Numbered from the stretch's first letter, positions 3,952 through 62,127 are shown. The stretch: 64,000 nt of DNA from a virus (IMGVR_UViG_3300028832_000001:100007-164006); one strand, 5' to 3'. Numbers and translations are program-made. The notes: generated from the letters alone by a model not told the origin.

Positions 3952-4959
3952 ATGAAATTAAAACTAGTATATAAATGTGAAATTTGTGGATTAAATGACT
4001 TAAATAAGCGTGGTTTAGGTACACATTTACAATTTAAACATTCTGATATTTCTAAAGAAACATATTATAAAAAATATTTAAAATGTATTGATGAAGATAC
4101 TTGTAAAGTTTGCGGGAAACCAACAAAATTTTTATCATTCAAAGTGGGATTTGCTAATTGCTGTTCAAAAGAATGTAGTAGAAAATGGAATAATAAAAGA
4201 ATACAAGATAGTAATTTAGATAAATTTGGGGTTAAAACACCATTTGAGTTAAAAGAAATACAAGAAAAAGTTAAAAATACAATAAAAGAAAAATACAATT
4301 GTGATAATATATTTCAAGTATCAGAAATAAAAGAAAAAATAAAACGGACATTAAAAGAAAAATATAATGTTGAGTACCCGTTAGAGTGTGAATTTTTTAA
4401 GAATAAAGCAAAAGAAACAACGTTTTTAAGATATGGTAATGAAAATTATAGAAATTCATTAAAAGCAGAAGAAACTTGTTTAAAAAACAACGGGGTTAGA
4501 CATCCGGCACAGTCAGGTATAATTGCGAAAAAAACAAGAAGTAAATATATTTATAATAATATAACATTTGATTCTAGTTGGGAACTTGCATATTATATTT
4601 GGTTAAAAGATCATAATATTAATTTTGAATATCATACAATAAAATTAGAATATGAATTTAATAATAATTTATATTATTATTTTCCTGATTTTTTGGTAGA
4701 AAATGATTTGATAGAAATTAAAGGCGATCAGTTTTTATCGGAAACTGGAAATTTAATTTCACCCTATAAAAATACTAATAATGAAAAATTAATTAAAAAA
4801 TTTGAATGCATGAAAAATAATAATGTAAAAATTATTTCTAAAATAGAAATAAAACCTATTATTTTATATATAAAAGAAAAATATGGAAAAAACTTTTTAA
4901 ATAAATTTAGGGAGAAAAATCAGAATGTTTCAGAAAACTGCAGAACTTCGTGGTCATAA
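3952..4959 (+). CDS. putative free-standing homing endonuclease (N-terminal C2H2/zinc-ribbon pair, tandem ~30-aa basic DNA-binding repeats, C-terminal PD-(D/E)xK-like nuclease)
   Basis: The N-terminus has a CxxC...HxxxH finger and a second CxxC...CC..C cluster. Repeats of the form FGVKTPFELKEIQEKVKNTIKEKYN / IFQVSEIKEKIKRTLKEKYNV follow. The C-terminus (WELAYYIWL...FPDFLV...DLIEIKG) is compatible with a D...(D/E)xK nuclease fold. The 3' end overlaps the terminase ORF by 35 nt. Confidence 0.45.
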   Translation: MKLKLVYKCEICGLNDLNKRGLGTHLQFKHSDISKETYYKKYLKCIDEDTCKVCGKPTKFLSFKVGFANCCSKECSRKWNNKRIQDSNLDKFGVKTPFELKEIQEKVKNTIKEKYNCDNIFQVSEIKEKIKRTLKEKYNVEYPLECEFFKNKAKETTFLRYGNENYRNSLKAEETCLKNNGVRHPAQSGIIAKKTRSKYIYNNITFDSSWELAYYIWLKDHNINFEYHTIKLEYEFNNNLYYYFPDFLVENDLIEIKGDQFLSETGNLISPYKNTNNEKLIKKFECMKNNNVKIISKIEIKPIILYIKEKYGKNFLNKFREKNQNVSENCRTSWS

Positions 4960-5845
4960 TGAGGTCGTAGAATTAACTAAAGAACAAATGGATGAATATG
5001 TAAAATGTTCTACAGATATTTTTTATTTTTCCAAATACTTTTATATTTTAAGTGATGAAGGTGAAGCGCCAATACATTTAAGAGAATACCAAGAACGTAT
5101 AGTTCGCTGTCTTGTTGGAAAATATTATGATAAAGAAGGTTCTATTAGAAATAATAGAATAATAATGCAAGGGCGACAGACAGGCAAGACTACTCTGGCC
5201 ACATTATATATTTTATGGTATGCACTTTTTAATGGAGACAAAACTATCGCTGTTCTGGCTAACAAGGAAGACCAAGCAAAAGAAATTATGTTGAGAATTC
5301 GCTCAGCTATTTTGAAACTTCCACTTTGGTTACAACAGGGAATTAATCCTGATAGAGGCGGTTGGTCAAAAGAAAGTATCGGTTTTGATAATGGAACTAA
5401 GATATTCTGTGCTGCTTCTGGTTCTTCTGCTATTAGAGGTAAATCTGTTGACTTGATGCTTGTCGACGAATTTGCATTCTTGCCTGAAGAAGAAGCTAAG
5501 GACTTTATTAAGTCAGTTTTCCCTACACAATCTGGTAGAAAGGATGCTATGATGATTCTTATTTCTACTCCGCATGGTATGAATGAATTTTATAACATCT
5601 GGATGAAAGCTATTTCTGGTGCAAGTTCTTATGTTCCTGCAAAGATTCAATGGTATGAAATTCCTGGAAGAGATGAAGCTTGGAAGAAGAGAATGATTCG
5701 AGACTTCGGTATTCAGATGTTCCAACAGGAATATGCTTGTTTAACTGGAGAACATAAAATAACAGTTCGATCCGAAGAAGGAATCGAACTAACGGAACCG
5801 ATTTCAAAACTATATGAACTTTGGATGGACGGTTTCTTAAGATAA
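4925..5845 (+). CDS. terL: terminase large subunit, ATPase domain only (T4 gp17 N-domain-like); nuclease domain not encoded contiguously
   Basis: Walker A (QGRQTGKTT) and Walker B (DLMLVDEFAF) are present. The order of blocks (YQERIV..., ILISTPHGMNEFYNIW, FQQEYACLTGE) parallels T4 gp17 residues ~130-360. The ORF stops right after the ATPase domain at a bidirectional terminator. Confidence 0.7.
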   Translation: MFQKTAELRGHNEVVELTKEQMDEYVKCSTDIFYFSKYFYILSDEGEAPIHLREYQERIVRCLVGKYYDKEGSIRNNRIIMQGRQTGKTTLATLYILWYALFNGDKTIAVLANKEDQAKEIMLRIRSAILKLPLWLQQGINPDRGGWSKESIGFDNGTKIFCAASGSSAIRGKSVDLMLVDEFAFLPEEEAKDFIKSVFPTQSGRKDAMMILISTPHGMNEFYNIWMKAISGASSYVPAKIQWYEIPGRDEAWKKRMIRDFGIQMFQQEYACLTGEHKITVRSEEGIELTEPISKLYELWMDGFLR

Positions 5846-5848
5846 AAA

Positions 5849-5884
5849 TAAAATCACCTTTTTGAAGGTGATTTTTTATTTTCG
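5849..5884. terminator. bidirectional rho-independent terminator (aaatcacctt-tttg-aaggtgattt) between terL and convergent GT gene
   Basis: 10-bp perfect inverted repeat flanked by A-run and T-run. Sits between convergent genes. Confidence 0.6.
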
Positions 5885-6739
5885 TTTAAACGGATTTAAT
5901 AATTTTGTATATTCATTTTCAGGATAATCTATTGATTTATCAGTAGGTTGATCCTTATATTTTAAATTTTCTACACTATCTATTCTTGTTCTATTTAATT
6001 TTTCTTCCCATTCATCTAATGAACGATGATAATAATGGAACAATCTAATATCACAATTTGATACATTTATTTTTGCTTTTGGTCCTACAACTTTTGGTTC
6101 AAATGTTGTATTATTTGGTAGTGTTACAGGATAATTATTAATAAAATGTGGATATACAAATTTTATATGGTCCATAGTATTTTTTAAAAATCTATGAATA
6201 AATGGTTTTACATCAACAAATGTTTCTTGATTATATTTTTCACTGACATACTTACAATCATCAATCATTGGTTTTTGTCTTGTTTTTGGTGTTTTAGATG
6301 ATTTATAAGAAATATTTGTTCTAGGAACACCAAATTGATAAATATCATTTTCATTTAATTTTTTTAAATAATCATTTATTGTTTTATATTTTGTTTTATC
6401 AAACCATAGATATTCGTCATCATCACAGAAAAATTGATATGTGTATTTATTATTTGTATTAACATATCTAGTATAATAATATTGTTGAACATTTAAAAAT
6501 TTAGATTTATCATATAATAAAACAACATCTACTTTTTCATTATCTTTAAATTTTTCTTTTATATTACAACAATTACTTTCATTATCTACAATAATAATAT
6601 GGTCAAATCCACACCAATTTAAATAGTGGTCAACCCATGAATCTATATCGCATTCTTTATATAATTTTGTTATTAATATAACTTCAGAAGAAATTGGTTT
6701 TGTTTTATATGGATTTTTCAATTCACTAGTTCTAAACAT
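5876..6739 (-). CDS. putative glycosyltransferase, GT92 (DUF23)-like GT-A fold
   Basis: Motif WVDHYLNWCGFDHIIIVDNES resembles the GT92 signature (HYxxxGxDHxxIYDNxS). A later HYYHRS also fits. 287 aa. Confidence 0.4.
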   Translation of the reverse strand: MFRTSELKNPYKTKPISSEVILITKLYKECDIDSWVDHYLNWCGFDHIIIVDNESNCCNIKEKFKDNEKVDVVLLYDKSKFLNVQQYYYTRYVNTNNKYTYQFFCDDDEYLWFDKTKYKTINDYLKKLNENDIYQFGVPRTNISYKSSKTPKTRQKPMIDDCKYVSEKYNQETFVDVKPFIHRFLKNTMDHIKFVYPHFINNYPVTLPNNTTFEPKVVGPKAKINVSNCDIRLFHYYHRSLDEWEEKLNRTRIDSVENLKYKDQPTDKSIDYPENEYTKLLNPFKRK

Positions 6740-6749
6740 TTTTCACCTA

Positions 6750-7526
6750 TTAAATTACACTTTGATATTGTTCAGCAAAAGTTCTGAAAATTTCAATATA
6801 CATCTTAATTATATTAACTGTTTCTTTTGCACTGAACTGATTATTCTTAAATCCATCAGAGTCAATAAAATCTATCTTTAATTTGACTGTAGCATATACA
6901 GAACGCTGATTTACTGAATACCCTAGTATATCTATTCTGGAACCATTATCGACGTTCTGGCGCACATATGGAGCGAAATATTTATTTAACTGCTTAATAT
7001 AACTCTTGACATCTGTATTTATTTCATTACGCATTTCAAAGATTTTAATTTTTAAAACAGCAAAAGCTTCAGTCTTAGTAACTTCGACACCTTTTAAGGC
7101 ACAATTATCAATATTGTGAACTAATAATAAAAGTTGATTTTTTAACAATATATTATCAGCCTTTTTCTTATCGACTTTTATAGTATTCTTTTTAAGCTGT
7201 TCAAGGCAATAATTTGTTGGGACCATCGCATTATAGCCTTCATTGTAAAAATTAACAACAGATTCCATAAGTTCTCTTGGCATCTTAATTATATTATAAC
7301 CAAAAGTTCTGACATTTCTTACTATTTTATCATAATATTTTGAAAATTCATTATTTTGAGAATTCTCATTAAGTGAGATAGAAGAACGAATAAAATCAAT
7401 GGGGTTAACGTCATTAATATAAGCTTCAAACATTTTTTCCATATTAAGCTTAACATCTTTATTGAGATGCTTAGCCTTTCTTTCCATAATTTTTTCGACT
7501 TCTTGTTTATAATCTAAAAATTCCAT
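6750..7526 (-). CDS. hypothetical protein
   Basis: 258-aa ORF with an RBS. Co-directional with the GT92-like gene. No recognisable motif. Confidence 0.4.
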   Translation of the reverse strand: MEFLDYKQEVEKIMERKAKHLNKDVKLNMEKMFEAYINDVNPIDFIRSSISLNENSQNNEFSKYYDKIVRNVRTFGYNIIKMPRELMESVVNFYNEGYNAMVPTNYCLEQLKKNTIKVDKKKADNILLKNQLLLLVHNIDNCALKGVEVTKTEAFAVLKIKIFEMRNEINTDVKSYIKQLNKYFAPYVRQNVDNGSRIDILGYSVNQRSVYATVKLKIDFIDSDGFKNNQFSAKETVNIIKMYIEIFRTFAEQYQSVI

Positions 7527-7636
7527 AAGTTTCGTGTCCCAATACTAGTCTTTTATTATTTATAGTTTAGGGGTTTACAATTATTTTGAAAAATGTTATA
7601 TTTAGGTCAAACACTTAACAAAAAGGAAAAACATCT

Positions 7637-8413
7637 ATGAAAAAAATCTATTCAATCTTTATTATGTTGGCGTTTGCACTCTTTACGGGTTGTACGACAG
7701 TCGACGAAACCGAAAGAGCAGTTGTTCTTGAATTCGGTAAGTACAGCGAAACTTTCGGACCAGGATTGCACTTCTATAATGTGTTCATGAAGAGCATTGT
7801 TACGATTCCCGTCAAAACACAGCTTGAAGCAAGCACATTCGAAGCAGGTTCTAAGGACCTTCAGCAAGTTGTTGTATCGTCAAACGTTAACTATCACGTA
7901 GATCCGCAAGCAGTTGGTAAGGTATATTCGAATTATGGTGTAAATTATGTTCAGACTATTCTTCAGCCTAAAATTAAGGAAACGGTTACGTCTATTACAC
8001 CACAGTATGTCCCTGAAGAAATGTTGCAGAAGCGAGAAGAAATTAATATTAGAATGAAAAATGCATTGAAGGCAAAGCTTGATTCTGCAGATGCACATAT
8101 TGTTATCGATGGTTTTACTGTAACTGGTTTCCAATTTACTCCTGCATTTAATTCTGCTATTGAAGAAAAGCAGGTTGCAGAACAGAAGGCATTGAAGGAA
8201 AAGAACGTTCTTAAGCAGATTGAATATCAGAATGAACAGAAGGTCGCAAAGGCAAGAGCTGATTCTACCGAAATGGCAATTAAGATGGCAACATTGAAGT
8301 CCCAGTCTGGCAAGGAATACTTGATGCTCAAGTGGATTGAAAAGTGGAATGGTCAGTTGCCGAATATGATGCCTGGTGATAACAAGATTATCCCAATGGT
8401 TAATGGACTTTAA
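7637..8413 (+). CDS. SPFH/band-7 (prohibitin/HflC-like) lipoprotein
   Basis: Lipoprotein signal peptide with lipobox (LFTGC). The mature protein begins with an SPFH-type segment (ERAVVLEFGKY...GPGLHF). The C-terminus is a coiled coil (QVAEQKALKEKN...). A promoter-like TATATTTAGGTCAAA lies upstream, and the SD is aaaaggaaaaa. Confidence 0.65.
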   Translation: MKKIYSIFIMLAFALFTGCTTVDETERAVVLEFGKYSETFGPGLHFYNVFMKSIVTIPVKTQLEASTFEAGSKDLQQVVVSSNVNYHVDPQAVGKVYSNYGVNYVQTILQPKIKETVTSITPQYVPEEMLQKREEINIRMKNALKAKLDSADAHIVIDGFTVTGFQFTPAFNSAIEEKQVAEQKALKEKNVLKQIEYQNEQKVAKARADSTEMAIKMATLKSQSGKEYLMLKWIEKWNGQLPNMMPGDNKIIPMVNGL

Positions 8414-8449
8414 AAACACCTAAAAATCTCCATATTTAGGGTCAAATCA

Positions 8450-8490
8450 AAAATACCAGTATTTTATACTGGTATTTTTTTATTTTTTAT
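8450..8490. terminator. rho-independent terminator (aaataccagtattttatactggtattt + T-run)
   Basis: Inverted repeat followed by TTTTTTTATTTTTT. Serves both the plus-strand SPFH gene and the convergent minus-strand genes. Confidence 0.6.
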
Positions 8491-8824
8491 TATTATTTCT
8501 ATTATTTTTTGTCTTACTTAATCGCCACTTTAGAAAGTCTCTTACTTTTTGTAAATCTGGATATTTAACGACTTGGTTTTCTGTAATATCATTCCAAATG
8601 TCCATATAACCGTTATACCAGCAGATAAACCACCAATAGTTTTGTGTCCCATACGCACGATATGAAATAATATCTGGACGACATTCATCCATTTTTCTTA
8701 CAAACAGATAAGATTCTTTACCAAAGTCATATCCGTCTTGGAAGAAAGAACCTAAGTCATATTGGGCAATATTATCAACCAATTCTTTATTTAAAAAGTT
8801 TGTTCTACTAGTTATATTATCCAT
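8480..8824 (-). CDS. hypothetical protein
   Basis: 114-aa ORF immediately downstream of, and co-directional with, the GT2 gene. Trp/Tyr-rich. Confidence 0.35.
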   Translation of the reverse strand: MDNITSRTNFLNKELVDNIAQYDLGSFFQDGYDFGKESYLFVRKMDECRPDIISYRAYGTQNYWWFICWYNGYMDIWNDITENQVVKYPDLQKVRDFLKWRLSKTKNNRNNNKK

Positions 8825-8832
8825 ATTATTAT

Positions 8833-9654
8833 TTATATCTGATAATTATTATATAAATTACGGTATCTTTCCATTATTAAATGTTTTCCTTTAATATGGT
8901 CAAATAATCCGTCAGTTCTTTCATGTGCTTGATGCATAATTTCAATATCTTTTGAAATTCCAACATTTAAACCAGCATACATAGCATCTATACCCATAGC
9001 TACATCTTCATAACCCCAGCCTTTAGCAAATGTTTTACTGTCAAATAAGGCATTATCTATACCATATTCTTTTTTCATAAATTCTATGTGTTTTAGTAAT
9101 CCTGTTTTAGTTATACCGAAATTACATGACCAGCCAATCATTCCAGTAAGCATTAAATCCATTTTTTCATCAAATGTTTTTGCATTATTCCATGCTTTTA
9201 TTGCACCAGAAGTTATCCTAAGATCGTCATAATTTAATGGTCTTTTTTGCCAAAGTTCATCCATATTAGCGGTCAATAAATCAGATGCTGGAACTTTTAT
9301 GTTATCGATTGGTGTATGTCTTCTAGTTCCAAAGACTAAATCATATTTTTCTAATAATTTTTTATAATTTACAATTACTTTTTTATTTGCTAGCCAAGAA
9401 TCACCATCTATAAAAATTAATGCATCTGTTTTATTATTAAGAAAATATGATATTACAGAATTTCTATTAGTGCATCTTCCAGGATTTTTACTATTATCAA
9501 TTATATAAACATTTTTATAAAAATTAACTGGCATTTTACCATCTGATAATACATATATCATTGTAGGTATTTCAGTTTGATTATATATTGAAAAAATGGC
9601 TTTACTTAAAGATTCTTCTTGATTATGATTTGTTATTGCTATTGTTATATCCAT
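8833..9654 (-). CDS. glycosyltransferase family 2 (GT-A fold)
   Basis: N-terminal IAITNHNQEESLSKAIFSIYNQT matches the GT2 opening motif. DGD (DxD) lies at ~aa 83. 273 aa. TATAAATA sits 4 nt upstream of the ATG. Confidence 0.6.
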   Translation of the reverse strand: MDITIAITNHNQEESLSKAIFSIYNQTEIPTMIYVLSDGKMPVNFYKNVYIIDNSKNPGRCTNRNSVISYFLNNKTDALIFIDGDSWLANKKVIVNYKKLLEKYDLVFGTRRHTPIDNIKVPASDLLTANMDELWQKRPLNYDDLRITSGAIKAWNNAKTFDEKMDLMLTGMIGWSCNFGITKTGLLKHIEFMKKEYGIDNALFDSKTFAKGWGYEDVAMGIDAMYAGLNVGISKDIEIMHQAHERTDGLFDHIKGKHLIMERYRNLYNNYQI

Positions 9655-14066: not shown

Positions 14067-14942
14067 ATGATAAATTATAATAATCCTAAATTAAGAGTCC
14101 TTAATTGTACACACTATGACATGGACGGTTGCGGTGCTTCTATTGTCTTAAAGAATTTCTATGAAGATGTTATTGTAGTTCCTGTAACTTATAACACGGA
14201 ATGGAAACTTCTTGATGACATTCGTCAATATGAAGGAAAGTATGATGCAATTATTTGCACAGACTTCTATCCAGCACAGACAATCAATGATTTAAGAAAG
14301 TTGTCAACTACATTAGTTCTTGACCATCATGAATCGGTTGTCGATAAGAATAACGATACTGATATTATTATCAATACGTTATATTCTGGAACTAAGCTTG
14401 CCTATAAGTTTGTCAGTAAGTTCAAAGACGTTTCATATCTTGAAAAGCTAGTTGATATTATTGACGATTATGACATGTTTAGACTGAAGATTCCAGCAAG
14501 TGTATATTTCAATAACCTTTTCTGGGAAATGGGTCATAAGTGGTTTACCAGACGTTTCATTACTGGAAATACAGTAATGTACCCTGAAGAAAAGCGATAT
14601 TTTATCGATGCCAAGAAAGAATTTGATAAAATGTATGAAACACTTGAAATTACAGATTTAGCTAGAAACGGTGTATTCTTTGAAACAGACCGATTCCATT
14701 ATGAATGTATCGAAGCACTCAAGAAAGACGGTTATAAGTGGTTTGCAATCAAGAATAAAGGTAATATTTCTGTTCGTTGTGATGATATTGATTTAACTGA
14801 AATTTTCAAGAAACTTGGTCGCGGAGGTGGTCATGCACATGCGGGTGGAGTTCCTCTTACTAAGACAGATAATGTTGCAGAATGGGTAAGAAAAATTGAA
14901 TACTTTATCGATGATTATTACATGAATATGATTGATGATTAA
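14067..14942 (+). CDS. DHH/DHHA1 family phosphoesterase (NrnA/RecJ-like)
   Basis: DHH motif (VLDHHES) with upstream Asp-rich motifs (HYDMDGCGA, ICTDFY). DHHA1 GGGH motif (LGRGGGHAHAGG) at the C-terminus. Confidence 0.7.
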   Translation: MINYNNPKLRVLNCTHYDMDGCGASIVLKNFYEDVIVVPVTYNTEWKLLDDIRQYEGKYDAIICTDFYPAQTINDLRKLSTTLVLDHHESVVDKNNDTDIIINTLYSGTKLAYKFVSKFKDVSYLEKLVDIIDDYDMFRLKIPASVYFNNLFWEMGHKWFTRRFITGNTVMYPEEKRYFIDAKKEFDKMYETLEITDLARNGVFFETDRFHYECIEALKKDGYKWFAIKNKGNISVRCDDIDLTEIFKKLGRGGGHAHAGGVPLTKTDNVAEWVRKIEYFIDDYYMNMIDD

Positions 14943-22439: not shown

Positions 22440-22521
22440 TAGAAACGTAAAATTATGTTTCTATATTTAGAGCGTCAATTGAATGGTCAATTGGGATAAA
22501 AACAAAAGGATAAAATAAATT

Positions 22522-30637: not shown

Positions 30638-30670
30638 TATATCGTTTCAGACAACATTAAATAAAAAGGG

Positions 30671-30699
30671 TTGACGGCAGTCACCCTTTTTGCTATATT
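30671..30699 (+). promoter_or_regulatory. sigma70-like promoter TTGAC-N18-TATATT embedded in conserved element AAAAAGGGTTGAC...CTTTTTGCTATATTTAGG
   Basis: -35 TTGAC at 30671-30675, spacer 18 nt, -10 TATATT at 30694-30699. An almost identical element recurs at 39083-39118. Confidence 0.5.
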
Positions 30700-30726
30700 T
30701 AGGAAAAACTTACAAGGAGATATAAA

Positions 30727-31218
30727 ATGATAGTAATCGCTTGGACGATTGTTGGTTTAACTGCACTTTTCATTATCTGCAGCTGCATAAAGAGTTGCGT
30801 CAGAATGGCAACAATGGAACGCTTTAAAAACGTTCCCATTCAGACACCTACCTTAATTGCAGATAAGAATAAGATTATTCAGTCATTATTTGATGATGAC
30901 GCTGAAAAGTTTTTCAAATATAAAGGTATAACATTCTGGTATTATAAGGATTCAAAGGATTACTTTGAAAAGCAGAGTTTTAGTGTTGCTGATGTAAAGA
31001 ATAAGATTGCACAGAAGTATGATGAACTCAAACAAGAACATCCAGGAATTACAGATTTTTTTGTTTCCATGACAAAACAAAATAATTATTTGACATGGGA
31101 ATTTGATCCGATTGACTTAAACTCTTATGTTCCGCCAAAGTCAACTAAGGATATTTGTATCGATGAGCTTAACAAATTAATAGAAAACAATGAAATAAAG
31201 GAAAAACATGACATCTAA
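30727..31218 (+). CDS. small membrane protein co-transcribed with flotillin (possible NfeD-like partner)
   Basis: 163 aa with an N-terminal TM helix. Stop overlaps the flotillin start. Confidence 0.35.
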   Translation: MIVIAWTIVGLTALFIICSCIKSCVRMATMERFKNVPIQTPTLIADKNKIIQSLFDDDAEKFFKYKGITFWYYKDSKDYFEKQSFSVADVKNKIAQKYDELKQEHPGITDFFVSMTKQNNYLTWEFDPIDLNSYVPPKSTKDICIDELNKLIENNEIKEKHDI

Positions 31219-32806
31219 TATGATCTACCCAATACTTATCGGAATTGCAGTAATTGCTTTAAGTATTCTCTTTTTTGCGTCTTATATCAAAGCCGCACCA
31301 GATGAAGTTAAAATCATCTCTGGTTTCCGACAACTAAGGACAATTATCGGACATTCAGGATTTAGAATTCCGTTCCTTGAGCAAGTCGATACTTTAAGCT
31401 TAAAGCTTATTCCAATCGATGTTAAGACCTCCGGTATTCCAACGTCAGATTATATTAATATCGCAGTTGATGCAGTCGTTCAGGTCAAAATTTCTGATGA
31501 AACTGCTGATATTAAGGTTGCTGCACAGAACTTCTTAAATAAGAATCCAGATGAAATTAAGAAGATGATTAGTGAAGTTCTTGAAGCAAACATGAGAGAG
31601 ATTGTTGGTCAAATGGAACTTGTCAAGCTTGTTAATGACAGACAACAGGTTTCTAAGAAGGTTCTCGAAAATGCTTCTCCAGACTTAAAGAAACTCGGTA
31701 TTGTTATTCAAACATTTAATATTCAGAACTTCTCTGATTCAGCAAAGGTTATTGAAAACCTCGGTGTTGACAAGGCAGTTGCAATTCAGAAAGCAGCAGC
31801 AATTTCTAGGGCCAATGCAGAAAGAGACGTTAAGATTGCTCAGGCAGAAGCAGCTAAGGAAGCAAACGATGCACAGGTTGCATCTAACCTCGAAATCGCA
31901 CAGAAGCAAAACGACTTAGAAGTTAAGAAGGCTGACCTTAAGAGAATTTCCGATAGCAAGAAGGCTGAAGCTGATGCCGCTTACGAAATTCAGAAGCAAG
32001 AACAGCAAAAGACCATTAACATTGCAGCTGCAGCAGCTGAAGTTGCAAAGCAGGAAAAACAGATTGAAATTCGTGAAAGAATGGTAGCTGTTAGACAGAA
32101 GGAACTCGAAGCTGAAATCCAGAAGAAGGCAGAAGCAGAAAAGCAAGCACAAATTCAGAAGTCTGATGCTGACCTTTATAGACAACAGAAGGAAGCTGAA
32201 GCAGCACTCTTCACACAGAAGCAACAGGCTGAAGCTATTAAGGCTAAGGCTGAAGCTGATAAGCAAAAAGCATTCGCTGAAGCTGCAGCAACTAAGGCTA
32301 AGGGTGAAGCAGAAGCTGATGCTGTAAAGGCTAAGGGTCTTGCAGAAGCAGCAGCACTTGACCAGAAGGCTGAAGCTATGAAGAAGTATGGTGATGCAGC
32401 AAGACAGGAAATGCAGCTCAGAACTATTGAAAAGTATTTCGAACAGTTACCAGCTATTGCAAGTGCCGTTGCAAAACCGATGGAAAAGATTGGCAATATC
32501 AATATGTATGGTGAAAGCGGTACAGCTAAGCTCACTGGCGATATTACCAAGACACTTACACAAGTTTCTAGTGGTTTAACTGATTCTCTTGGTATTGATC
32601 TTAAGACTGTTCTCGGTTCTATGTTCGGTGCACATCTTGCTGGACTCGAAAAGAAACCGTCGCAGGTCCCTGTTGAAGTTGCAAAGAACGATCCAGCAGT
32701 TCCAGCTACCCCAGCTCAGGCTACTCCAGTAGAATCTCCGGTTCAAATGTCTGAATCTGATATTGAACAGGCAGCAGCAGCATTTCTTAGAAAGCGTAAG
32801 CACTAA
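31208..32806 (+). CDS. flotillin-family SPFH protein (FloT/YuaG-like)
   Basis: N-terminal TM/hairpin helix, then an SPFH domain. A long Ala/Glu/Lys/Gln coiled-coil region (AEAEKQAQIQK...AEAIKAKAEADKQKAFAEAAATKAKGEAEADAVKAKGLAEAAA) is typical of the flotillin C-terminus. 532 aa. Confidence 0.7.
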   Translation: MTSNMIYPILIGIAVIALSILFFASYIKAAPDEVKIISGFRQLRTIIGHSGFRIPFLEQVDTLSLKLIPIDVKTSGIPTSDYINIAVDAVVQVKISDETADIKVAAQNFLNKNPDEIKKMISEVLEANMREIVGQMELVKLVNDRQQVSKKVLENASPDLKKLGIVIQTFNIQNFSDSAKVIENLGVDKAVAIQKAAAISRANAERDVKIAQAEAAKEANDAQVASNLEIAQKQNDLEVKKADLKRISDSKKAEADAAYEIQKQEQQKTINIAAAAAEVAKQEKQIEIRERMVAVRQKELEAEIQKKAEAEKQAQIQKSDADLYRQQKEAEAALFTQKQQAEAIKAKAEADKQKAFAEAAATKAKGEAEADAVKAKGLAEAAALDQKAEAMKKYGDAARQEMQLRTIEKYFEQLPAIASAVAKPMEKIGNINMYGESGTAKLTGDITKTLTQVSSGLTDSLGIDLKTVLGSMFGAHLAGLEKKPSQVPVEVAKNDPAVPATPAQATPVESPVQMSESDIEQAAAAFLRKRKH

Positions 32807-39177: not shown

Positions 39178-42100
39178 ATGAAAAAGATAATCGGAATATT
39201 ATTAGTTTTAGCTGCATTTGTTTTTTCTGCAGACTATAAGCCGTTTAACTTTGAAACTATCCCACAAGATTCTGCAAGTCAACAGGATCAATTTGATTAT
39301 ATGCTTCAATATAAGTTATATGGTCATGATTTTATCAAAATGGGAAATGATGTTCGTATTCCAGACAAGTCAGGTTGGAATGGTACTGTAGGTAATATTA
39401 CTTCTAATGCAAGATTGACCTTGGGCGGTCCGATTCTTGCAAATGGTAGTATTTCTATGGGTGATGGTCCAAATAATATTACTGGACCAGTTCGCTCAGT
39501 CGATTTTGATCTTGGAAATGTAAATAATTCCAAAATCGCAAGCCCTGTTTGCTTAAGCGGAACCGCAAATGCTAATGCATTGTCTGCGATTGAAGATCAT
39601 AAGACTTATTCTTTCGATGCAAACATTTGTAAGGACAGCGTTCCTGCTGCACCTACAAATCTTTATATGCCGATTGTTGATTGGGATAATCTTGGTGCTG
39701 ATGTTAAGTTGGATGATATTGTTTTAAGTGGCAATGATGCTACAGATACTATTTTTGTTCCTAAAGGTGAAGGCGCATATAAGATTTTAATTGATAAGAT
39801 TCAGTTTGGCCTTGGCGGAACTAATGCAAGCCATTTGTATGTTAAGATGCAAGATGGCGGTAGATTGACCCAGATTTTCGTAAAGAATTTTATTTATGGA
39901 AATCATGCTACAATTCAGGTTGTTTATGATACTGACAGTGGAAGCGTAGTATTGAATCAGGACCAATATCGTGGTAACTTGATGTTCTATTCTAATAATG
40001 TTATCAGTTTTGATAATATGGACTATGCTCCTATTCAAGGTTCATTTATTTCTACTGATTCAATTTTCTTGGGAAGAAACGTTAATATTTCTGGTCAGTT
40101 ATTGACTAATAAGCTTGAAATTGGAAATGATATTGATGGTAAAAACTTCAGATTTGTTAAATTCGACCCTGATACAATCGATGTTAAGCTTGATAAGTAT
40201 GGTGGTTTGAGAGAAAATGATTCTACTGTTATTATTCCTATTGAACTAAGTGATACTGCTACTATCGCTGTATATTTTAGATATTGTTTTGATTTGAAAG
40301 ATGGTGTAACTGTTGAAGATTTTAATATTCCGCCTACATTCCCTATTTGTAACATCGATCAACCGAAAGAAGTATCTATTCCTATCGGTTCAAAGATTCC
40401 AAGTGATCCAATTAAGGTAAATGTTAAAGTCGATACATTGACAGAAAATGAATATCTTGTAATTAAGATTGATAGCATTTCTGGTGCTATTCTTCCTGAT
40501 GGTAAGACTGAAGGAGAATTAAAGATTAAGATTATTGACGCTCCTATTGGACATGTTGAATTTGATACTACAAAGACATATGAGTTTGAGGAAAATAAAC
40601 TTGGTGAAGTAGATGTAATCAAGATTTTAAATGGAACTGAAAATACTCGTTTCCATCTTGATAGTGCATATACTGATAGATATGAATTGGATAGCTTGAC
40701 TGGTAAGTTGACACTTATTGGTGAACCATTAGATTATGAAAAGGCTGCAATCGATGTTATTAAGGTTACATTGACTGATACTGGCAATGTAAGTGTAACT
40801 CGTAATATTCCTATTACAGTAATTGACGTTAATGAAGCACCTACTATCGATGATGTAACTGCTAATCTTCCGGAAAATCTTATTCATCCATTCATGGTTG
40901 AAAAGTTAGTTGCAAAAGATCCAGATACTAAGACAACATTTACTCAAAATGTTTTCAGTATGCTTGAAGGTGATACAAGCTTATTTAGAGTAGATTCTGA
41001 TGGTGAAATTTGGGCAAAGAAGACATTTGACTATGAAACTGATCAGAAAACCTATACTTTGAAGGTTTTGGTTCATGATAAGACTAATCCAGCATTGAAG
41101 GATAGTGCTATTGTTACTGTTAATATCACAAACAGCAATGATGGTCCTAAGTTTGACAGAAATGATACTACATTCCATGTAAATGAAAATGAACCATTTA
41201 AGGATAGTGTAAAGGCAACTGACCAGGATGGTGATAAGATTACTTATTCTATCATTGGAAGTGTTCCATTCAAAATTGATTCTACTGGCGTAATTACTTC
41301 TACTAGAACATTTGACTATGAAAAAGAAAAAGAATTTACATTCAAGGTCATTGCTGATGATGGTAAAGCAAAAGATACAATGACTGTAAATATTATAGTA
41401 GACAATGTAAATGAGCCTGTTCATACCAAAGATACAACTTTTGTTGTAGATGAAGGTAAAACTGGTGAAATCGGTAAAGTCAAAGGAGAAGATGAAGATG
41501 GAAAGCCTGTTAAATTTTCTTGCGATGATAGTGTGCATTACAGCATCGATACTAATACTGGTATTCTTAGACTGGTAGACCCATTTGACTATGAGATTAC
41601 AAAATCTGATACCATAAAGGTATTTGTTACTGATAGTCTATTTACAGATACTGCCATAGTTATTATTAATGTTAATAATGTAAATGAACCTCCTGTATTA
41701 CAGCCAAATGATTCTCTTACAGTTCCAGAAAATTGTAAGAATTGTATTGTTGGTATTATTACAGCAGTTGACCCTGACAGTGATAAGGTAATTTACGAAG
41801 TTAAGGAACCTGGTTTCACAATCGATACAAATGGAGTATTAAAGCTCACTGATCCTCTTGATTATGAGAAAACTCCAGAAGTTAAGATTACAGTTATTGC
41901 AAAGGATTCTAGTGGCGCAGCTGATACTGCCACCTATATAATTAAGATAACTGATATTAATGAACCAGTCCATGTTCAAGATACAACTTGTTCTGTAAAG
42001 GAAAATTATACTGGTAAGGTTTGCAAGATTACAGCAACTGATGAAGATAAAACAACTCCTAAATATATAATTACCGATACTACAAATTATTCTATCGATT

Positions 42101-43986
42101 CTACTGGTGTAATTACTATTAAGAACCCGATTGATTATGAAAAGAAGACTAAGGACACAGTAACTGTTATTGTAACTGATGACGAATTTTCTGATACCGC
42201 ACAGGTAATTATCAGAGTTCTCGATGAACCTGAAAAGGTTGAAATTACCACATGGGATGATGAAAAGCCTAAAGATACAGTAAAGACAAATGACCCAGAT
42301 CATAAGTTCGAATGGGAACTTTGTGAAGGTGATAGCTGTATTAAGCATGAAGAATTTCCGCATATCAAGAAAGATACAACTATCAAGGTATGTAATGATA
42401 AGAAGACTGTTTGTGATTCAGTTGTAGTTTTATTCAATGATGCACCTCCAGTTGTTACTTTGACAAATGCAAAGTCTACTGATGCATTGATTGACTATAT
42501 TACAATCGAAGAACAGAAGGACGATAAGATTTATGTCAACAAGAAAGAAAATCCAATTACTGTAACTGTTAGAGATACTGTTCATAAGACAGAAAAGAAA
42601 TTTGATATTAAAGTTAAGCTTGATACAATTCCTACTAAGGATATTAAGATTAAGGAATATAACTACTTGATTGATGAATCTCTTGCAACTCATACAGCAA
42701 TAGGTAACAATCTTATTGAAGTTTCTGAAGTTATTTCTGTTGACGGTAATAAGATAACAATTTCTAAGATTGTTGATAAGAAGACAATGGAACCAATCGA
42801 TACAGTTCAAACTGTTACTTATCATAAGAAGGTTGGTGGTAAGGACGTAGTTGTTTCTTATAAGACTGATAATCTTACTGGTCAGAGAGTTTCTGATTAT
42901 GAAATTTCTTACATGGCTGATTCTTGCACTAAGGTTACATATACTGTAAATGATAAGAAGGAAATTGTTAAGAATAAGGAAGGAAATATTGCATATAATA
43001 TCACTTATGATTATGTAGATGATTTTGGTAACAAAGCATCTGCATCAGTTGAAATTATCTTCGACGATATTCCGCCTAAGGTTGAAATTCTTGGACCTGG
43101 TCCAATGGAACATTTCAATACAAATGCAATTCCAGTTAAGTGGACAGTTAATGGCGAAACACAAGATACTTTGACATTACAGAGACTTGAAAAAGGTGTT
43201 AACTATATTATCAGAAGATATGTAGATAAGGCTGGTAACGTCGCTGCTGATACAGTCACAGTTCTTATGAATGAAGCCAAGGATATTGATATTGAAATTA
43301 TCAATCCAGTAACCAAGGTTGACCAGGATAAAGTTGATGAATATTATTCTGAAGGTCATAAGTATAATGATAAGAAACCGTTTGACGTCAAGTTTGTTGA
43401 CCCGAAGAACGATACAATTCCAGATGTAATTGGTGTTGGTTTCAAGGTTGATATTGTACTTCCGTCTGTTTCTCCTACTGGTTCTCTTGCAACATTGGAT
43501 GACATTGTAAAGAATGGTCAGATTCCAGTTGATGATAAGGGAAATATCGTTGGTGCTTCTACAAAGGGAATTCCAGTAGATAAGTATGTTGAAGAACATT
43601 GTACTGAAGAATTCCAGAAGGATTACGATAAGTATGGTTTGAATATTCCGCTTTATGACGTTACTTATAAACTTCATCTTTGGGTATATACAACTACTGC
43701 AAACTATGTAAATGATTTTAATATTGAATTTACATTGAATGATGAAGCTAAGACTACTACAGCAGGAACTGTCCAGATGGTTATCGACTGGTTGTCTGAT
43801 AAGGATGGAAACGTCAAGGCTAAGAACCATCATGCTTTAGGAACAGGCGCATATATAACCAAGTTGTTCAGCACTTCTGTTGCAAAACACCGTTGTGATT
43901 ATAAGGATCAAGTTAAGGGTGATAGAACTGTAAAGAAGGATGAAACAATGAAAACATTTGGTTATAAGCGACCAAACAACAAGTAA
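39178..43986 (+). CDS. giant secreted protein with multiple cadherin-like repeats
   Basis: Signal peptide (MKKIIGILLVLAAFVFSA). At least six domain junctions carry cadherin-type linker motifs (VIDVNEAPTI, NSNDGPKF, DNVNEPVHT, NVNEPPVL, DINEPVHV, LDEPEKV). Each is preceded by ...DYE(K/T)... blocks. 1602 aa. Confidence 0.6.
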   Translation: MKKIIGILLVLAAFVFSADYKPFNFETIPQDSASQQDQFDYMLQYKLYGHDFIKMGNDVRIPDKSGWNGTVGNITSNARLTLGGPILANGSISMGDGPNNITGPVRSVDFDLGNVNNSKIASPVCLSGTANANALSAIEDHKTYSFDANICKDSVPAAPTNLYMPIVDWDNLGADVKLDDIVLSGNDATDTIFVPKGEGAYKILIDKIQFGLGGTNASHLYVKMQDGGRLTQIFVKNFIYGNHATIQVVYDTDSGSVVLNQDQYRGNLMFYSNNVISFDNMDYAPIQGSFISTDSIFLGRNVNISGQLLTNKLEIGNDIDGKNFRFVKFDPDTIDVKLDKYGGLRENDSTVIIPIELSDTATIAVYFRYCFDLKDGVTVEDFNIPPTFPICNIDQPKEVSIPIGSKIPSDPIKVNVKVDTLTENEYLVIKIDSISGAILPDGKTEGELKIKIIDAPIGHVEFDTTKTYEFEENKLGEVDVIKILNGTENTRFHLDSAYTDRYELDSLTGKLTLIGEPLDYEKAAIDVIKVTLTDTGNVSVTRNIPITVIDVNEAPTIDDVTANLPENLIHPFMVEKLVAKDPDTKTTFTQNVFSMLEGDTSLFRVDSDGEIWAKKTFDYETDQKTYTLKVLVHDKTNPALKDSAIVTVNITNSNDGPKFDRNDTTFHVNENEPFKDSVKATDQDGDKITYSIIGSVPFKIDSTGVITSTRTFDYEKEKEFTFKVIADDGKAKDTMTVNIIVDNVNEPVHTKDTTFVVDEGKTGEIGKVKGEDEDGKPVKFSCDDSVHYSIDTNTGILRLVDPFDYEITKSDTIKVFVTDSLFTDTAIVIINVNNVNEPPVLQPNDSLTVPENCKNCIVGIITAVDPDSDKVIYEVKEPGFTIDTNGVLKLTDPLDYEKTPEVKITVIAKDSSGAADTATYIIKITDINEPVHVQDTTCSVKENYTGKVCKITATDEDKTTPKYIITDTTNYSIDSTGVITIKNPIDYEKKTKDTVTVIVTDDEFSDTAQVIIRVLDEPEKVEITTWDDEKPKDTVKTNDPDHKFEWELCEGDSCIKHEEFPHIKKDTTIKVCNDKKTVCDSVVVLFNDAPPVVTLTNAKSTDALIDYITIEEQKDDKIYVNKKENPITVTVRDTVHKTEKKFDIKVKLDTIPTKDIKIKEYNYLIDESLATHTAIGNNLIEVSEVISVDGNKITISKIVDKKTMEPIDTVQTVTYHKKVGGKDVVVSYKTDNLTGQRVSDYEISYMADSCTKVTYTVNDKKEIVKNKEGNIAYNITYDYVDDFGNKASASVEIIFDDIPPKVEILGPGPMEHFNTNAIPVKWTVNGETQDTLTLQRLEKGVNYIIRRYVDKAGNVAADTVTVLMNEAKDIDIEIINPVTKVDQDKVDEYYSEGHKYNDKKPFDVKFVDPKNDTIPDVIGVGFKVDIVLPSVSPTGSLATLDDIVKNGQIPVDDKGNIVGASTKGIPVDKYVEEHCTEEFQKDYDKYGLNIPLYDVTYKLHLWVYTTTANYVNDFNIEFTLNDEAKTTTAGTVQMVIDWLSDKDGNVKAKNHHALGTGAYITKLFSTSVAKHRCDYKDQVKGDRTVKKDETMKTFGYKRPNNK

Positions 43987-44044: not shown

Positions 44045-44245
44045 TTGCTATATTATAATATTATGCAAAAAACAAAAATTGATATCGTAGTATTTGTAGT
44101 TATTTTTATTTTCGTATTTAGTTTAATGATATTTGGATGTAGTTCTGAAAGTTCTACTTCTCCTGAAGATATGTATCAGAAGTGTATTACTGTTAACGAA
44201 GAAAATCCAGATGCATGTGACCAAGAATTTACAATATATAAATGA
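44045..44245 (+). CDS. small membrane/secreted protein
   Basis: 66 aa. Hydrophobic N-terminus ending FGCSS (lipobox-like). Confidence 0.3.
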   Translation: MLYYNIMQKTKIDIVVFVVIFIFVFSLMIFGCSSESSTSPEDMYQKCITVNEENPDACDQEFTIYK

Positions 44246-44724
44246 ATTATTTAAAAACATATTTCGCAATTATTGCCAAAGCGGCAGGGAGAGAGCCATC
44301 GATATTATATGATAAGCATCATATAATTCCTCAGTCATTGGGTGGTCCAGACGTGCCTACGAACTGGATTTATTTAACCCCTAGGGAACATATGATTGCA
44401 CATCATTTGCTTGCCAGAGCTTATCCAGACGTCGAATTATTGCAGTCTGGATTTAACCTGAAGAAAGTCTGTATTAAGTATTATGACTATTATAGATGGT
44501 CTATGAGGTTAAAAGACTTAGCAGGTATGATAGAATATAGTAAGAATAAAAAAGAGATTGTAACGCGTTTAAGAGTGCTTCTGGACGCAATTGGTGATGT
44601 AGACCTAGATAAACATATTCCGGTAAAACAACAGCCTAATATGGTCAAATCTAAAGCACCAGCAGTTACTGAAAAAACTGAAAAAATAGAAACTAAAAAA
44701 GGAAAAAAGAAATGCAAAGAATAA
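44242..44724 (+). CDS. HNH endonuclease
   Basis: HHIIPQSLGGPDVPTNWIYLTPREHMIAHHLL is the HNH core (H-H...N...H..H). 160 aa with a Lys-rich C-terminus. Confidence 0.65.
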   Translation: MNYLKTYFAIIAKAAGREPSILYDKHHIIPQSLGGPDVPTNWIYLTPREHMIAHHLLARAYPDVELLQSGFNLKKVCIKYYDYYRWSMRLKDLAGMIEYSKNKKEIVTRLRVLLDAIGDVDLDKHIPVKQQPNMVKSKAPAVTEKTEKIETKKGKKKCKE

Positions 44725-44915
44725 TTGGAATCTTACTGTTACTATGTGGCATGTCATTTGCATGTTCACCCTTCTTCACTTCTGAATTTTGTAAGGAGAT
44801 AGATTTCTGGAATACTCAGTATTCTAGTTATCATTACAAATATTTTGAAATTTCTCCTAACTGGCTACTCTGGATTAACGGTTATCAAGCGTTTAATTTC
44901 ACGATTCGTTTCTAA
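44712..44915 (+). CDS. small lipoprotein-like ORF
   Basis: 67 aa. The N-terminus IIGILLLLCGMSFACS resembles a lipoprotein signal. Confidence 0.25.
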   Translation: MQRIIGILLLLCGMSFACSPFFTSEFCKEIDFWNTQYSSYHYKYFEISPNWLLWINGYQAFNFTIRF

Positions 44916-49826: not shown

Positions 49827-50756
49827 ATGAGATATATTAAAGGGAGAAGTAATTTAAGTTGCACAATTTTTGTGCCATGGGATTGTAATAATCATTGCAA
49901 GTTCTGTACATCTAAGCAGATGTATAAACAAAGAACTTGTGATATTAATGCAATTCTTGCACAAATCAAAAAACTTAATGAAAATCCGTTAATTGAAGAA
50001 TTTGTATTAACAGGTGGAGAACCATTAGCAGATATTGAGAAATGTCAGATTCTTATTGACGCTATGGAGAAACCTGTTTATATCAATACTACATTCCCAA
50101 CATTTACAGATTTGCCTGGAACAGTAGAAATGTCTAAAGTCAAGACGTTAATCGATTTCATTAATAATAATGAAAAGATTGGTGGTTTGAATATTTCCAG
50201 ACATATGCATCAACAGTTTTATGAACCAGTTTTGCCAGTAGATATGTTTGCACATTTAATTAAGAAACATATTAAATTAAATGTAGTTCTTTCTAAGGAG
50301 TTTAATATAAACGAATTTAAAGCGTTTATAGAACCTTATAAAGAATTAGAAAATCTATCTATCTGTATTAGAGCAGATTATCGGAATATTACTAAAGATA
50401 ACTTAAAGAATCGTGACGATGTATTTGAAAAGTTAATTTTAGAATATGAATATGAAAGTTCTGGCGGATGTATGGTTTGTAATGACGATAGATTTTGGAA
50501 TAATAATTTATTAATCAGTTATCATCGTGGAATGGAACATTCTAAAGTAGTTTATGGTAATAAGATATTTGTAAATGATATTTTGATTACTATTGATGGA
50601 CAAGTTTATGATGACTGGGATTTAGTAACAAATACAGAATTTGAAAGATGGGTATTTGGCGAATATTTATTGACAGATGATATATCTGAATATGAAAATG
50701 ATCCAGTATATATTGATTGGTTATTGAAAAAGAATGGTGAAGAAGGTATATTATGA
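49827..50756 (+). CDS. second radical-SAM enzyme (N-terminal CxxxCxxC, no obvious SPASM/RRE); function unknown
   Basis: VPWDCNNHCKFC at aa 17-28, FVLTGGEPLA at aa ~60, and a lone CMVC pair at ~aa 212. 309 aa. The stop overlaps the start of the Cys/Gly peptide ORF (ATGA). Confidence 0.6.
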   Translation: MRYIKGRSNLSCTIFVPWDCNNHCKFCTSKQMYKQRTCDINAILAQIKKLNENPLIEEFVLTGGEPLADIEKCQILIDAMEKPVYINTTFPTFTDLPGTVEMSKVKTLIDFINNNEKIGGLNISRHMHQQFYEPVLPVDMFAHLIKKHIKLNVVLSKEFNINEFKAFIEPYKELENLSICIRADYRNITKDNLKNRDDVFEKLILEYEYESSGGCMVCNDDRFWNNNLLISYHRGMEHSKVVYGNKIFVNDILITIDGQVYDDWDLVTNTEFERWVFGEYLLTDDISEYENDPVYIDWLLKKNGEEGIL

Positions 50757-61698: not shown

Positions 61699-62127
61699 TT
61701 AGCCAACGTTAAATTCAACCGGACGGGCTTCAGGACAGACCGGAATGTTGATGGTCAAGAGACCATTTTCAACCTTAGCGGTGAGTTCCTTCATGCTGAG
61801 GTTAGCCGGAACAAAGATCTTGATAGAGAGCTTACCGCTACCCTTGATCTTACGAACTGTGTAAACACGCTTTGCTTCAGCATCCTTTTCAGCGTCGGTG
61901 ACTTCCTTCTCAACAGTTTCGATAGTAAGATATGCCTTACCGTCTTCAATGGTGCCCTTGAGCTTGATGTCTTCACGGGTCTTACCAACGACTGCAACTT
62001 CAATAGTGCTCGAACCATCTTCTTCGTGAATGATGTTGAGCGGGACATTGACCTTTTCAGCAGTGTCATTAAAAGATGCATCGAATGCATTGAGTTCCTT
62101 GAGAAGATTTTCAAAAATATTATTCAT
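61699..62127 (-). CDS. Hsp20/alpha-crystallin family small heat-shock protein
   Basis: C-terminal GLLTINIPV and central alpha-crystallin-like beta-rich region. 142 aa. Markedly higher GC than neighbouring genes. Confidence 0.65.
   Translation of the reverse strand: MNNIFENLLKELNAFDASFNDTAEKVNVPLNIIHEEDGSSTIEVAVVGKTREDIKLKGTIEDGKAYLTIETVEKEVTDAEKDAEAKRVYTVRKIKGSGKLSIKIFVPANLSMKELTAKVENGLLTINIPVCPEARPVEFNVG

Follow-up and report, generated by a model that had tools for sequence, protein, structure and literature searches.

A prohibitin-type SPFH gene with a lipoprotein signal peptide in a metagenomic T4-like phage

Why should a phage carry a membrane scaffold of the SPFH superfamily, and on which side of which membrane would its product act? 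The question is raised by a gene at 7637..8413 (+ strand, stop codon included), encoding 258 amino acids, in the 64,000-nucleotide viral sequence IMGVR_UViG_3300028832_000001:100007-164006, the whole of which is referred to below as the window. Structures have recently been obtained for cages of SPFH proteins (HflK/C, prohibitin, flotillin, stomatin, erlin), and most of their bacterial roles are still obscure; phage-borne copies suggest that control of some membrane process pays off in infection, and we know of no phage SPFH protein whose function has been demonstrated. A preliminary description of the locus had proposed a phage-encoded, prohibitin/HflC-like SPFH lipoprotein with its own promoter and terminator. 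The present analysis leaves little doubt about the identity and architecture of the protein as a prohibitin-type SPFH lipoprotein. It goes beyond that description in that phage SPFH or prohibitin genes turn out to be already annotated, in that the lipid anchor is derived within one clade, and in that the same phage carries a flotillin gene (31208..32806); what sets the locus apart is that its lipid anchor is derived, that its core can be swapped, that its host is probably Fibrobacter and that a captured flotillin resides in the same phage.

Family, fold and membrane anchor

The SPFH profile match whose absence would have spoken against that description is readily obtained: Pfam Band_7 (PF01145) covers residues 21-200 (7697..8236, +) with E = 1.9e-33 and 116.4 bits against a cut-off of 23.6, and the PHROG profile phrog_200, labelled 'lipoprotein', matches with E = 2.5e-43. 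A sequence search of the PDB ranks prohibitins first (E = 1.6e-19 to 8e-14), followed at weaker values by HflK (9.4e-5), erlin (4e-4), HflC (0.013) and QmcA (0.053). The NCBIfam equivalog cut-offs are missed for both HflK (TIGR01933, 50.1 vs 159.4 bits) and HflC (TIGR01932, 24.2 vs 134.4 bits), and homologues bear the NCBI name 'prohibitin family protein'. Of the earlier double label the prohibitin half therefore stands, by sequence match and by top-ranking folds, while the HflC half, with its poor match, missed cut-off and lack of an hflK-hflC pair, holds at superfamily level only; judged from its sequence, the protein is of prohibitin type and not an orthologue of HflK or HflC. No second prohibitin-type paralogue is present in the window, where the sole other SPFH gene encodes the flotillin, and no second SPFH gene adjoins this single gene either in the window or in the related loci viewed.

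An AlphaFold2 (AF2) monomer model, calculated from a 57-sequence alignment, has a mean predicted local distance difference test score (pLDDT) of 83.1, with strands between residues 17 and 88, helices between 90 and 150 and pLDDT values of 84-96 in the SPFH domain. DSSP assigns to this model a 54-residue helix (169-222) and a second helix (226-236; together 8141..8344, +), which would be the coiled-coil wall elements of SPFH cages. In Foldseek searches human PHB1/PHB2 chains take the top four places (E = 1.7e-17 and 3.4e-17), with HflK/C, erlin, stomatin, QmcA and flotillin next and a probability of 1.00 for the prohibitin, HflK/C, erlin, stomatin and flotillin chains; the model aligns with PHB1/2 and HflK/C chains taken from cage structures. 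The C-terminal region harbors the motif W237-N-G-Q-L-P242 (8345..8362, +), corresponding to the family signature KW[NDS]GxLP. In alignment A1 Trp237 is invariant and Gly239 and Pro242 are kept in at least 90% of the sequences, and the signature is present in all seven isolated-phage homologues inspected.

Preceding the SPFH domain, codons 1-18 specify a predicted lipoprotein signal peptide consisting of MKK, a 13-residue hydrophobic stretch and the lipobox L-F-T-G, followed by Cys19 (TGT 7691-7693; 7637..7693, +). This N-terminus, MKKIYSIFIMLAFALFTG followed by Cys19, with Lys2 and Lys3 ahead of the stretch Ile4-Phe16, agrees with the lipobox of the preliminary description and obeys a PROSITE-style lipoprotein rule, which we take to be PS51257: Lys or Arg within the first seven residues, an uncharged hydrophobic stretch, and a lipobox [LIVMF..]-x-[AGS]-C with the Cys at position 15-35. 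The rule is satisfied by 3 of 868 candidate start sites (at least 50 amino acids) in the whole window and by 85 of 109 homologues of at least 225 residues. MKK, the uncharged stretch and [LFIM]-x-[GA]-C at positions 16-19 persist down to about 40% identity.

Among IMG/VR relatives of at least 50% identity 11 of 12 carry the lipobox, and among those below 38% identity 62 of 63 have an N-terminal helix instead. The same helix replaces the lipobox in all of the best 80 bacterial-genome relatives (at most 38% identity), and the seven inspected isolated-phage homologues, including one annotated 'lipoprotein', likewise have an uncleaved N-terminal helix and no lipobox. In a neighbour-joining tree calculated with the anchor region left out, the lipobox proteins fall into a single clade placed within the diversity of helix-anchored relatives; inside this clade one sub-branch (P0039 and P0043) has secondarily lost the Cys and again shows an uncleaved helix. 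The lipid anchor is, by these sequence comparisons, a derived feature of one clade. A scan of 1.84 billion cluster representatives gave 4058 matches at E of at most 0.001 and 192 at 1e-30 or below, with the lipobox clade at 47-61% identity and the remainder at about 39% or less. As about four more distant representatives have convincing lipobox-like N-termini of their own, lipid anchoring appears to be recurrent in the family and not unique to the window protein.

The helix-anchored relatives that were read have positive charges ahead of the helix and are therefore predicted to be N-in, with the SPFH domain outside; given this orientation, the lipid anchor would keep the domain on the same side of the membrane. 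Since the uncleaved helix of P0039 and P0043 must stay in the inner membrane, helix and lipid anchors appear to be interchangeable and the protein would be an inner-membrane one.

Two further open reading frames (ORFs) of the window, and no more, obey the lipoprotein rule, namely 44063..44245 (+) and 44712..44915 (+), encoding 60 and 67 amino acids. Each may encode a small lipoprotein of the phage, an o-spanin for example; no partner of i-spanin type was identified. The 160-residue ORF between them (44242..44724) reads like an HNH endonuclease, and Pfam gave no match for it.

Transcription unit, exchanged core and phage genome

Both genes adjoining the SPFH gene lie on the opposite strand, a conserved 258-residue protein of no assigned function on one side (6750..7526, -) and a 113-residue baseplate-wedge-like protein, convergent with the SPFH gene, on the other (8480..8824, -). 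Upstream a sigma-70-like site (7574..7602, +; 10 of 12 matches) consists of TTTACA (7574-7579), a spacing of 17 nucleotides and TATATT (7597-7602) with an extended -10 TG at 7594-7595, overlapped by the motif TGTTATATTTAG (7594..7605, +). A Shine-Dalgarno-like AGGA, read from the sequence, follows at 7624..7627 (+), with the ATG 9 nucleotides on. Downstream an intrinsic hairpin (8449..8479, both strands) with a perfect 14-bp stem, a 3-nucleotide loop, a preceding A-run and a following T-run folds at -19.9 kcal/mol (z = -5.05), a value equalled by none of 200 shuffles; it can serve as a bidirectional terminator stopping both the SPFH gene and the convergent 113-residue gene. Together with the opposite-strand neighbours, promoter-like site and hairpin uphold the promoter and terminator that had been proposed for the gene, which is predicted to be its own small transcription unit. 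In relatives, gene callers chose an upstream ATG, equivalent to 7593 in the window, giving a form of 273 residues. Since this ATG is out of frame in the window, where the A-run differs by one base from that of the relatives, and the A-run length varies, the methionine of MKK is taken as the real start.

The sequence TGYTATATTTAG precedes both the SPFH lipoprotein gene and the flotillin operon (30691), 33-40 nucleotides before the start codon, and the motif (T)G(Y)TATATTTAG is found 33-60 nucleotides before the SPFH lipoprotein gene (7594..7605), gp32 (22461..22470) and the flotillin operon (30691..30702), all on the + strand, the version upstream of gp32 being cTATATTTAG at 22462. Distant relatives (L006, L007, L098) have similar 'TGCTAyATTTG' elements ahead of their SPFH gene. 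The motif may be a shared promoter element resembling the Bacteroidota-type -7 box TAnnTTTG. By counts, no shared promoter class emerges (TGYTATATTTAG 4 vs 1.3 expected, TATATTTRG 6 vs 4.1; not significant), the motif being suggestive by position only. Likewise, a repeat TATTTAGG(G)TCAAA flanking the gene at 7599 and 8433 was discarded, its 5 matches vs 3.3 expected not being significant.

The ratio of nonsynonymous to synonymous substitution rates (dN/dS) against orthologues is 0.04-0.2, which shows the gene to be functional and under purifying selection. Comparison with two close relatives, L094 and L095, delineates a core of codons ~21-172 (7697..8152, +) with only about 70% nucleotide and 68% amino-acid identity (dS 1.1-1.4, dN/dS 0.18), while identity is 96-100% in the adjacent genes and spacers, the signal peptide and the coiled coil. 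In L094, otherwise about 97% identical, the protein segments encoded by codons 1-20 and 173-258 are 100% identical, at a dS of ~0.19. The 110-nucleotide spacer 7527-7636 shows 94.5-98.2% identity in relatives whose SPFH core is only ~70% identical. That only the core diverges amid near-identical flanks indicates its replacement by recombination. Segment 173-236, on the other hand, is 91-100% identical throughout P0001-P0016 with the exceptions of P0003 and P0010 (89%), and is 91-95% identical to phage-like contigs of ~55% GC whose cores reach ~72-74%; modules are also common to phage-like contigs spanning 29-58% GC. The GC content at third codon positions (GC3) of the SPFH gene, 0.39 where the mean is 0.23, ranks second among 59 ORFs, with gp32 and UvsX high too, and fits either high expression or recent import from a higher-GC source. 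The top GC3 of the window ORFs, 0.46 vs the same mean, belongs to an Hsp20/alpha-crystallin gene (61699..62127, -).

The window has about 32% GC and contains no tRNA genes. A T4 gp15-type tail sheath stabiliser, a T4-type TerL ATPase and the baseplate-wedge-like protein represent the structural genes, UvsW, UvsX, a DnaB-like helicase and gp32 those of replication, in keeping with the claim that the SPFH gene is phage-encoded. An anaerobic ribonucleotide reductase NrdD with ATP-cone (45189..47660, +) and a radical-SAM protein, perhaps the NrdD activase (49827..50756, +), fit a strictly anaerobic host; in combination with the T4-type genes they identify the element as a T4-like myovirus of an anaerobe. 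A megablast of positions 1-25000 against 50,697 phage records gave no DNA match to an isolated phage. A metagenomic contig of 244,213 bp encodes a 98%-identical copy of the protein within the same trio of local genes, and 100%-identical copies occur on two IMG/VR contigs.

Clade members occur on contigs of 116-455 kb that look like large phages, with many small unknown ORFs as well as NUDIX, NAPRTase, Thg1 and polyA-polymerase genes, and on ~42 kb regions, viral according to IMG/VR, whose SSB, exonuclease and ParB-like genes look like a prophage early region. A cluster at 55% identity includes proteins of cultured isolates (Fibrobacter sp. UWH9; WP_073285811.1), and in one Fibrobacter metagenome-assembled genome (MAG) the gene has an excisionase-like gene and a HicAB pair as neighbours, beyond which host genes follow. 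On account of these isolate and MAG homologues and of the affinity of the flotillin, Fibrobacter is the probable host lineage, and this gut and rumen fibre-degrader is the most likely host; the 32% GC of the phage against 47-49% in the prophage-like regions calls for caution.

The flotillin locus (30727..32806, +) comprises the gene of a 163-residue membrane protein without family match, followed by the gene of a 532-residue flotillin (31208..32806; Band_7 6.7e-23, Flot 1.5e-10, PDB flotillin-1 E = 1.3e-50) with a hydrophobic N-terminal segment and a predicted orientation towards the cytoplasm. A terminator-like hairpin and the motif TGCTATATTTAG lie before the locus at ~30670-30702. The flotillin is 69% identical to P0195, which represents a 90%-identity cluster whose members include flotillins of Fibrobacter isolates (e.g. 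UWB16). On its metagenome-derived assembly contig P0195 is surrounded by the housekeeping genes panD, rsfS and argS and is therefore regarded as cellular, which makes the phage flotillin most likely host-derived. Flotillins are rare among isolated phages (9 records) and occur on 49 IMG/VR contigs. Only the IMG/VR contig of the present phage has both SPFH genes, other large contigs carrying one of them; with one shared contig, and with different longest contigs for the two families, the flotillin was ruled out as an obligate partner of the SPFH lipoprotein.

Around the SPFH trio, conservation of the flanking 258- and 113-residue genes is confined to the closest relatives, and gene order near TerL differs between the window and four relatives (L001-L004). 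In the window, family-2 glycosyltransferase genes (5876..6739 and 8833..9654, both -) lie inside the structural block on either side of the trio; in L001-L004 they are absent at those positions, and TerL and gp15 directly adjoin it. Of TerL, the gene at 4925..5845 (+) supplies only the T4-type N-terminal ATPase part, 306 residues ending in '...QEYA' followed by CLTGEHKITVRSEEGIELTEPISKLYELWMDGFLR and the stop codon, an end which presumably resembles the short N-fragment of the atypical naturally split inteins known from phage TerL genes. Relatives L001-L004 carry the same 306-residue piece, and the C-terminal half was not found among the window ORFs scanned. A homing-endonuclease-like ORF (3952..4959, +; DUF7487) overlaps the TerL start. 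Elsewhere a DHH/DHHA1 phosphoesterase-family gene (14067..14942, +) lies between the structural and replication blocks, and a protein of 1602 residues (39178..43986, +), in which four or more domains of cadherin and bacterial Ig-like type are recognised (Cadherin E = 1.5e-42), is probably an adhesin, fibre or capsid decoration.

Proposed mechanism and competing explanations

The mechanism put forward here, tentatively and at somewhat less than an even chance, is that the protein is exported and lipidated and then assembles at the inner membrane, on its periplasmic face, into a ring or cage that corrals FtsH-type or other membrane proteins. The precursor would be exported by Sec, modified with diacylglyceryl on Cys19 and cleaved by signal peptidase II. 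As the tether between Cys19 and the first SPFH strand is only about six residues long, it would hold the SPFH domain pressed flat onto the cytoplasmic membrane from the periplasmic side, where HflK/C and, topologically, mitochondrial prohibitin also lie. Helix 169-222, the second helix and the WNGxLP tail would then mediate assembly into a homo-oligomeric ring or cage fencing an inner-membrane patch with its proteins, and capture of a client could change the turnover or organisation of membrane proteins in infection. Placement in the inner membrane follows from the N-in topology of the helix-anchored relatives, from the reversion to a helix inside the clade and from the short tether, and a periplasmic-face inner-membrane cage is slightly favoured over its alternatives taken together. 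That cages of HflK/C and prohibitin enclose FtsH or m-AAA is established (PDB 7vhp, 7wi3, 9cz2, 8rrh; PMC13086221). Because both thus surround proteases of the FtsH family, such a protease would by precedent be the best-supported client; by this analogy FtsH itself is nevertheless a rather doubtful one, although the predicted periplasmic topology is compatible with it.

Several observations weigh against this mechanism. Nothing in the analysis connects the protein to FtsH, and Pfam identifies no FtsH, NfeD or other conserved partner adjoining the gene in the window and five related contexts. The tail 237-258 falls below a pLDDT of 50 in the AF2 monomer model, oligomerisation being read from homology only. 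The gene is sporadic among related phages and for that reason accessory and not essential for infection. Finally, residue +2 after the Cys is Thr, Ala or Ser in clade members and never Asp, which bears on sorting between the two membranes as discussed below.

Phage exclusion is one of the two alternatives that survive best, although it too must be called unlikely. In such a conflict role the envelope lipoprotein would shield the infected or lysogenic cell from superinfection, for instance by blocking the passage of an ejected genome through the inner membrane or by masking a component of the envelope, as phage T5 Llp and T4 Imm and Sp bring about exclusion with other folds. The gene is moron-like, standing alone between a promoter-like site and a terminator and running opposite to both neighbours, which would suit this role, as would the position of the 55%-identical homologues near one end of Fibrobacter prophage-like regions, among early-region genes and next to HicAB. 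Furthermore, exchange of the core between phages that are otherwise ~97% identical, with modules distributed across 29-58% GC, is a pattern common in conflict genes. Against it, the dN/dS of 0.18 in the swapped core is purifying and not diversifying, no similarity to known exclusion proteins is found, and PADLOC returned no defence match, only a chance-level hit (15 bits, E = 0.0037) to an orphan methyltransferase model; moreover, we know of no SPFH protein for which exclusion of phages has been demonstrated.

The lipoprotein could instead act as a client-free membrane stabiliser in concert with the phage flotillin, keeping the host envelope and the proton-motive force intact while a large phage completes its infection cycle, or organising membrane domains for assembly or timed lysis, an explanation of the same low likelihood as exclusion. 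It would account for the presence of a Fibrobacter-type flotillin and of Hsp20 in the same phage, for the same promoter-like motif ahead of both SPFH genes and for the occurrence of the clade mostly on the large contigs, and the high GC3 of the gene, alongside gp32 and UvsX, fits high expression. That GC3 could, however, just as well stem from a recent transfer out of a source of higher GC, the two SPFH genes are found together on the contig of this phage only, and no lysis genes were identified near the SPFH gene.

A more elaborate view, which is quite unlikely, combines conflict and scaffolding. In this case the protein would be a modular conflict device of Fibrobacter phages with a constant coiled coil and WNGxLP tail and an exchangeable SPFH core that sets client or target specificity; its periplasmic cage would exclude phages or neutralise a host envelope defence and, with the captured flotillin, remodel both faces of the inner membrane.

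Less probable still is an outer-membrane, surface or vesicle lipoprotein, exported by Lol or a surface route, altering the cell surface or being shed in vesicles, and serving in lysogenic conversion in the manner of PM0222. In E. coli, lipoproteins without Asp at +2 are directed to the outer membrane, and by this rule, which may not be that of Fibrobacter, all clade members would go there. The very short tether after Cys19 is at odds with such sorting: removal of the linker reportedly impairs sorting of E. coli outer-membrane lipoproteins. About half of these carry a disordered N-terminal linker (bioRxiv 10.1101/2021.01.05.425367). Vesicle export has a precedent in PM0222, an HflK/C-like protein on a prophage island that is secreted in outer-membrane vesicles (PMC9872710), and carry-over of membrane or vesicles would be consistent with the finding of SPFH proteins in virion preparations from jumbo phages of the genus Eneladusvirus (PMC7760394). 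Contrary to these cases, an uncleaved inner-membrane helix has been regained inside the clade and all other relatives are helix-anchored in the inner membrane. In addition, no SPFH cage on the outer membrane is known to us.

That the N-terminus is an uncleaved signal anchor as in the relatives, its Cys incidental and unlipidated, is highly improbable: the hydrophobic stretch does occupy the position of the relatives' helix and two clade members lack the Cys, yet the full pattern is kept in the great majority of homologues down to ~40% identity (85 of 109, as given above), the rule selects just three start sites in the window, and 13 residues are short for a membrane-spanning helix. Two further candidates were rejected. 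A Sec-exported lipoprotein cannot enter a capsid or tail assembled in the cytoplasm, and the gene lies on the strand opposite to the structural genes around it, which rules out a virion component; a spanin was ruled out on size and architecture.

Comparison with known systems

For work on SPFH scaffolds in general, the natural switch between helix and lipid anchor in one clade and the natural swap of a core on a constant background offer experimental handles, as does the combination of a periplasmic-type and a cytoplasmic-type scaffold in one phage. The practical value is limited by a phage that comes from metagenomes only and by a host that is hard to manipulate.

PM0222 of Pasteurella multocida resembles the window protein by its description, as an SPFH protein on a prophage element that is exported to the envelope or to vesicles (PMC9872710). 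It differs in being a virulence factor acting on macrophage TLR1/2, a role without counterpart for a gut or rumen cellulolytic host (PMC9872710). E. coli HflK and HflC share with the window protein the SPFH superfamily, the periplasmic orientation predicted here and the fold (E = 3e-14 to 6e-14), and they have a historical phage link through the stability of lambda CII. The weak sequence match and the missed equivalog cut-offs set the window protein apart, as do its single gene instead of a pair, its 258 residues vs 419 in HflK and its lipid instead of a helix anchor.

Within phages, Band 7 or prohibitin proteins of PHROG 200 have been recorded in Fusobacterium phage Fnu1 ('prohibitin family protein'), Escherichia phage Skarpretter ('band 7 protein'), Serratia phage BF and other Eneladusvirus, and Acinetobacter phage nACB2. 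The window protein is 25-35% identical over more than 90% of its length to members in 71 phage records and agrees with them in size, SPFH-plus-helix architecture and the KW[NDS]GxLP motif; a further 196 loci of the family are catalogued in IMG/VR. Phage SPFH proteins of this kind are annotated in many genomes, with their function uncharacterised (PMC7760394). In contrast to those of isolated phages, the window protein belongs to the separate lipobox clade, at most ~39% identical to everything outside. Inside that clade stands the 'prohibitin family protein' of Fibrobacter (WP_073285811.1, UWH9, P0066 cluster), with 55% identity over the full length, a lipobox and the C-terminal motif; the Fibrobacter copies lie in prophage-like regions of ~47-49% GC, near early-region or, in one MAG, host genes, and not in a T4-like phage of 32% GC.

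Among solved structures, mitochondrial PHB1/PHB2 are the closest relatives in both sequence (E = 1.6e-19) and fold (E = 1.7e-17). At ~20% identity, they differ from the window protein in being two helix-anchored paralogues that form a hetero-oligomer, as opposed to one gene and a lipid anchor; their tie to the m-AAA/FtsH protease would extend to the window protein by analogy. Both have in common a short N-terminal anchor, an SPFH domain, a long helix and a short tail, and, with the topology predicted here, an SPFH domain on the side of the membrane facing away from the cytoplasm or matrix.

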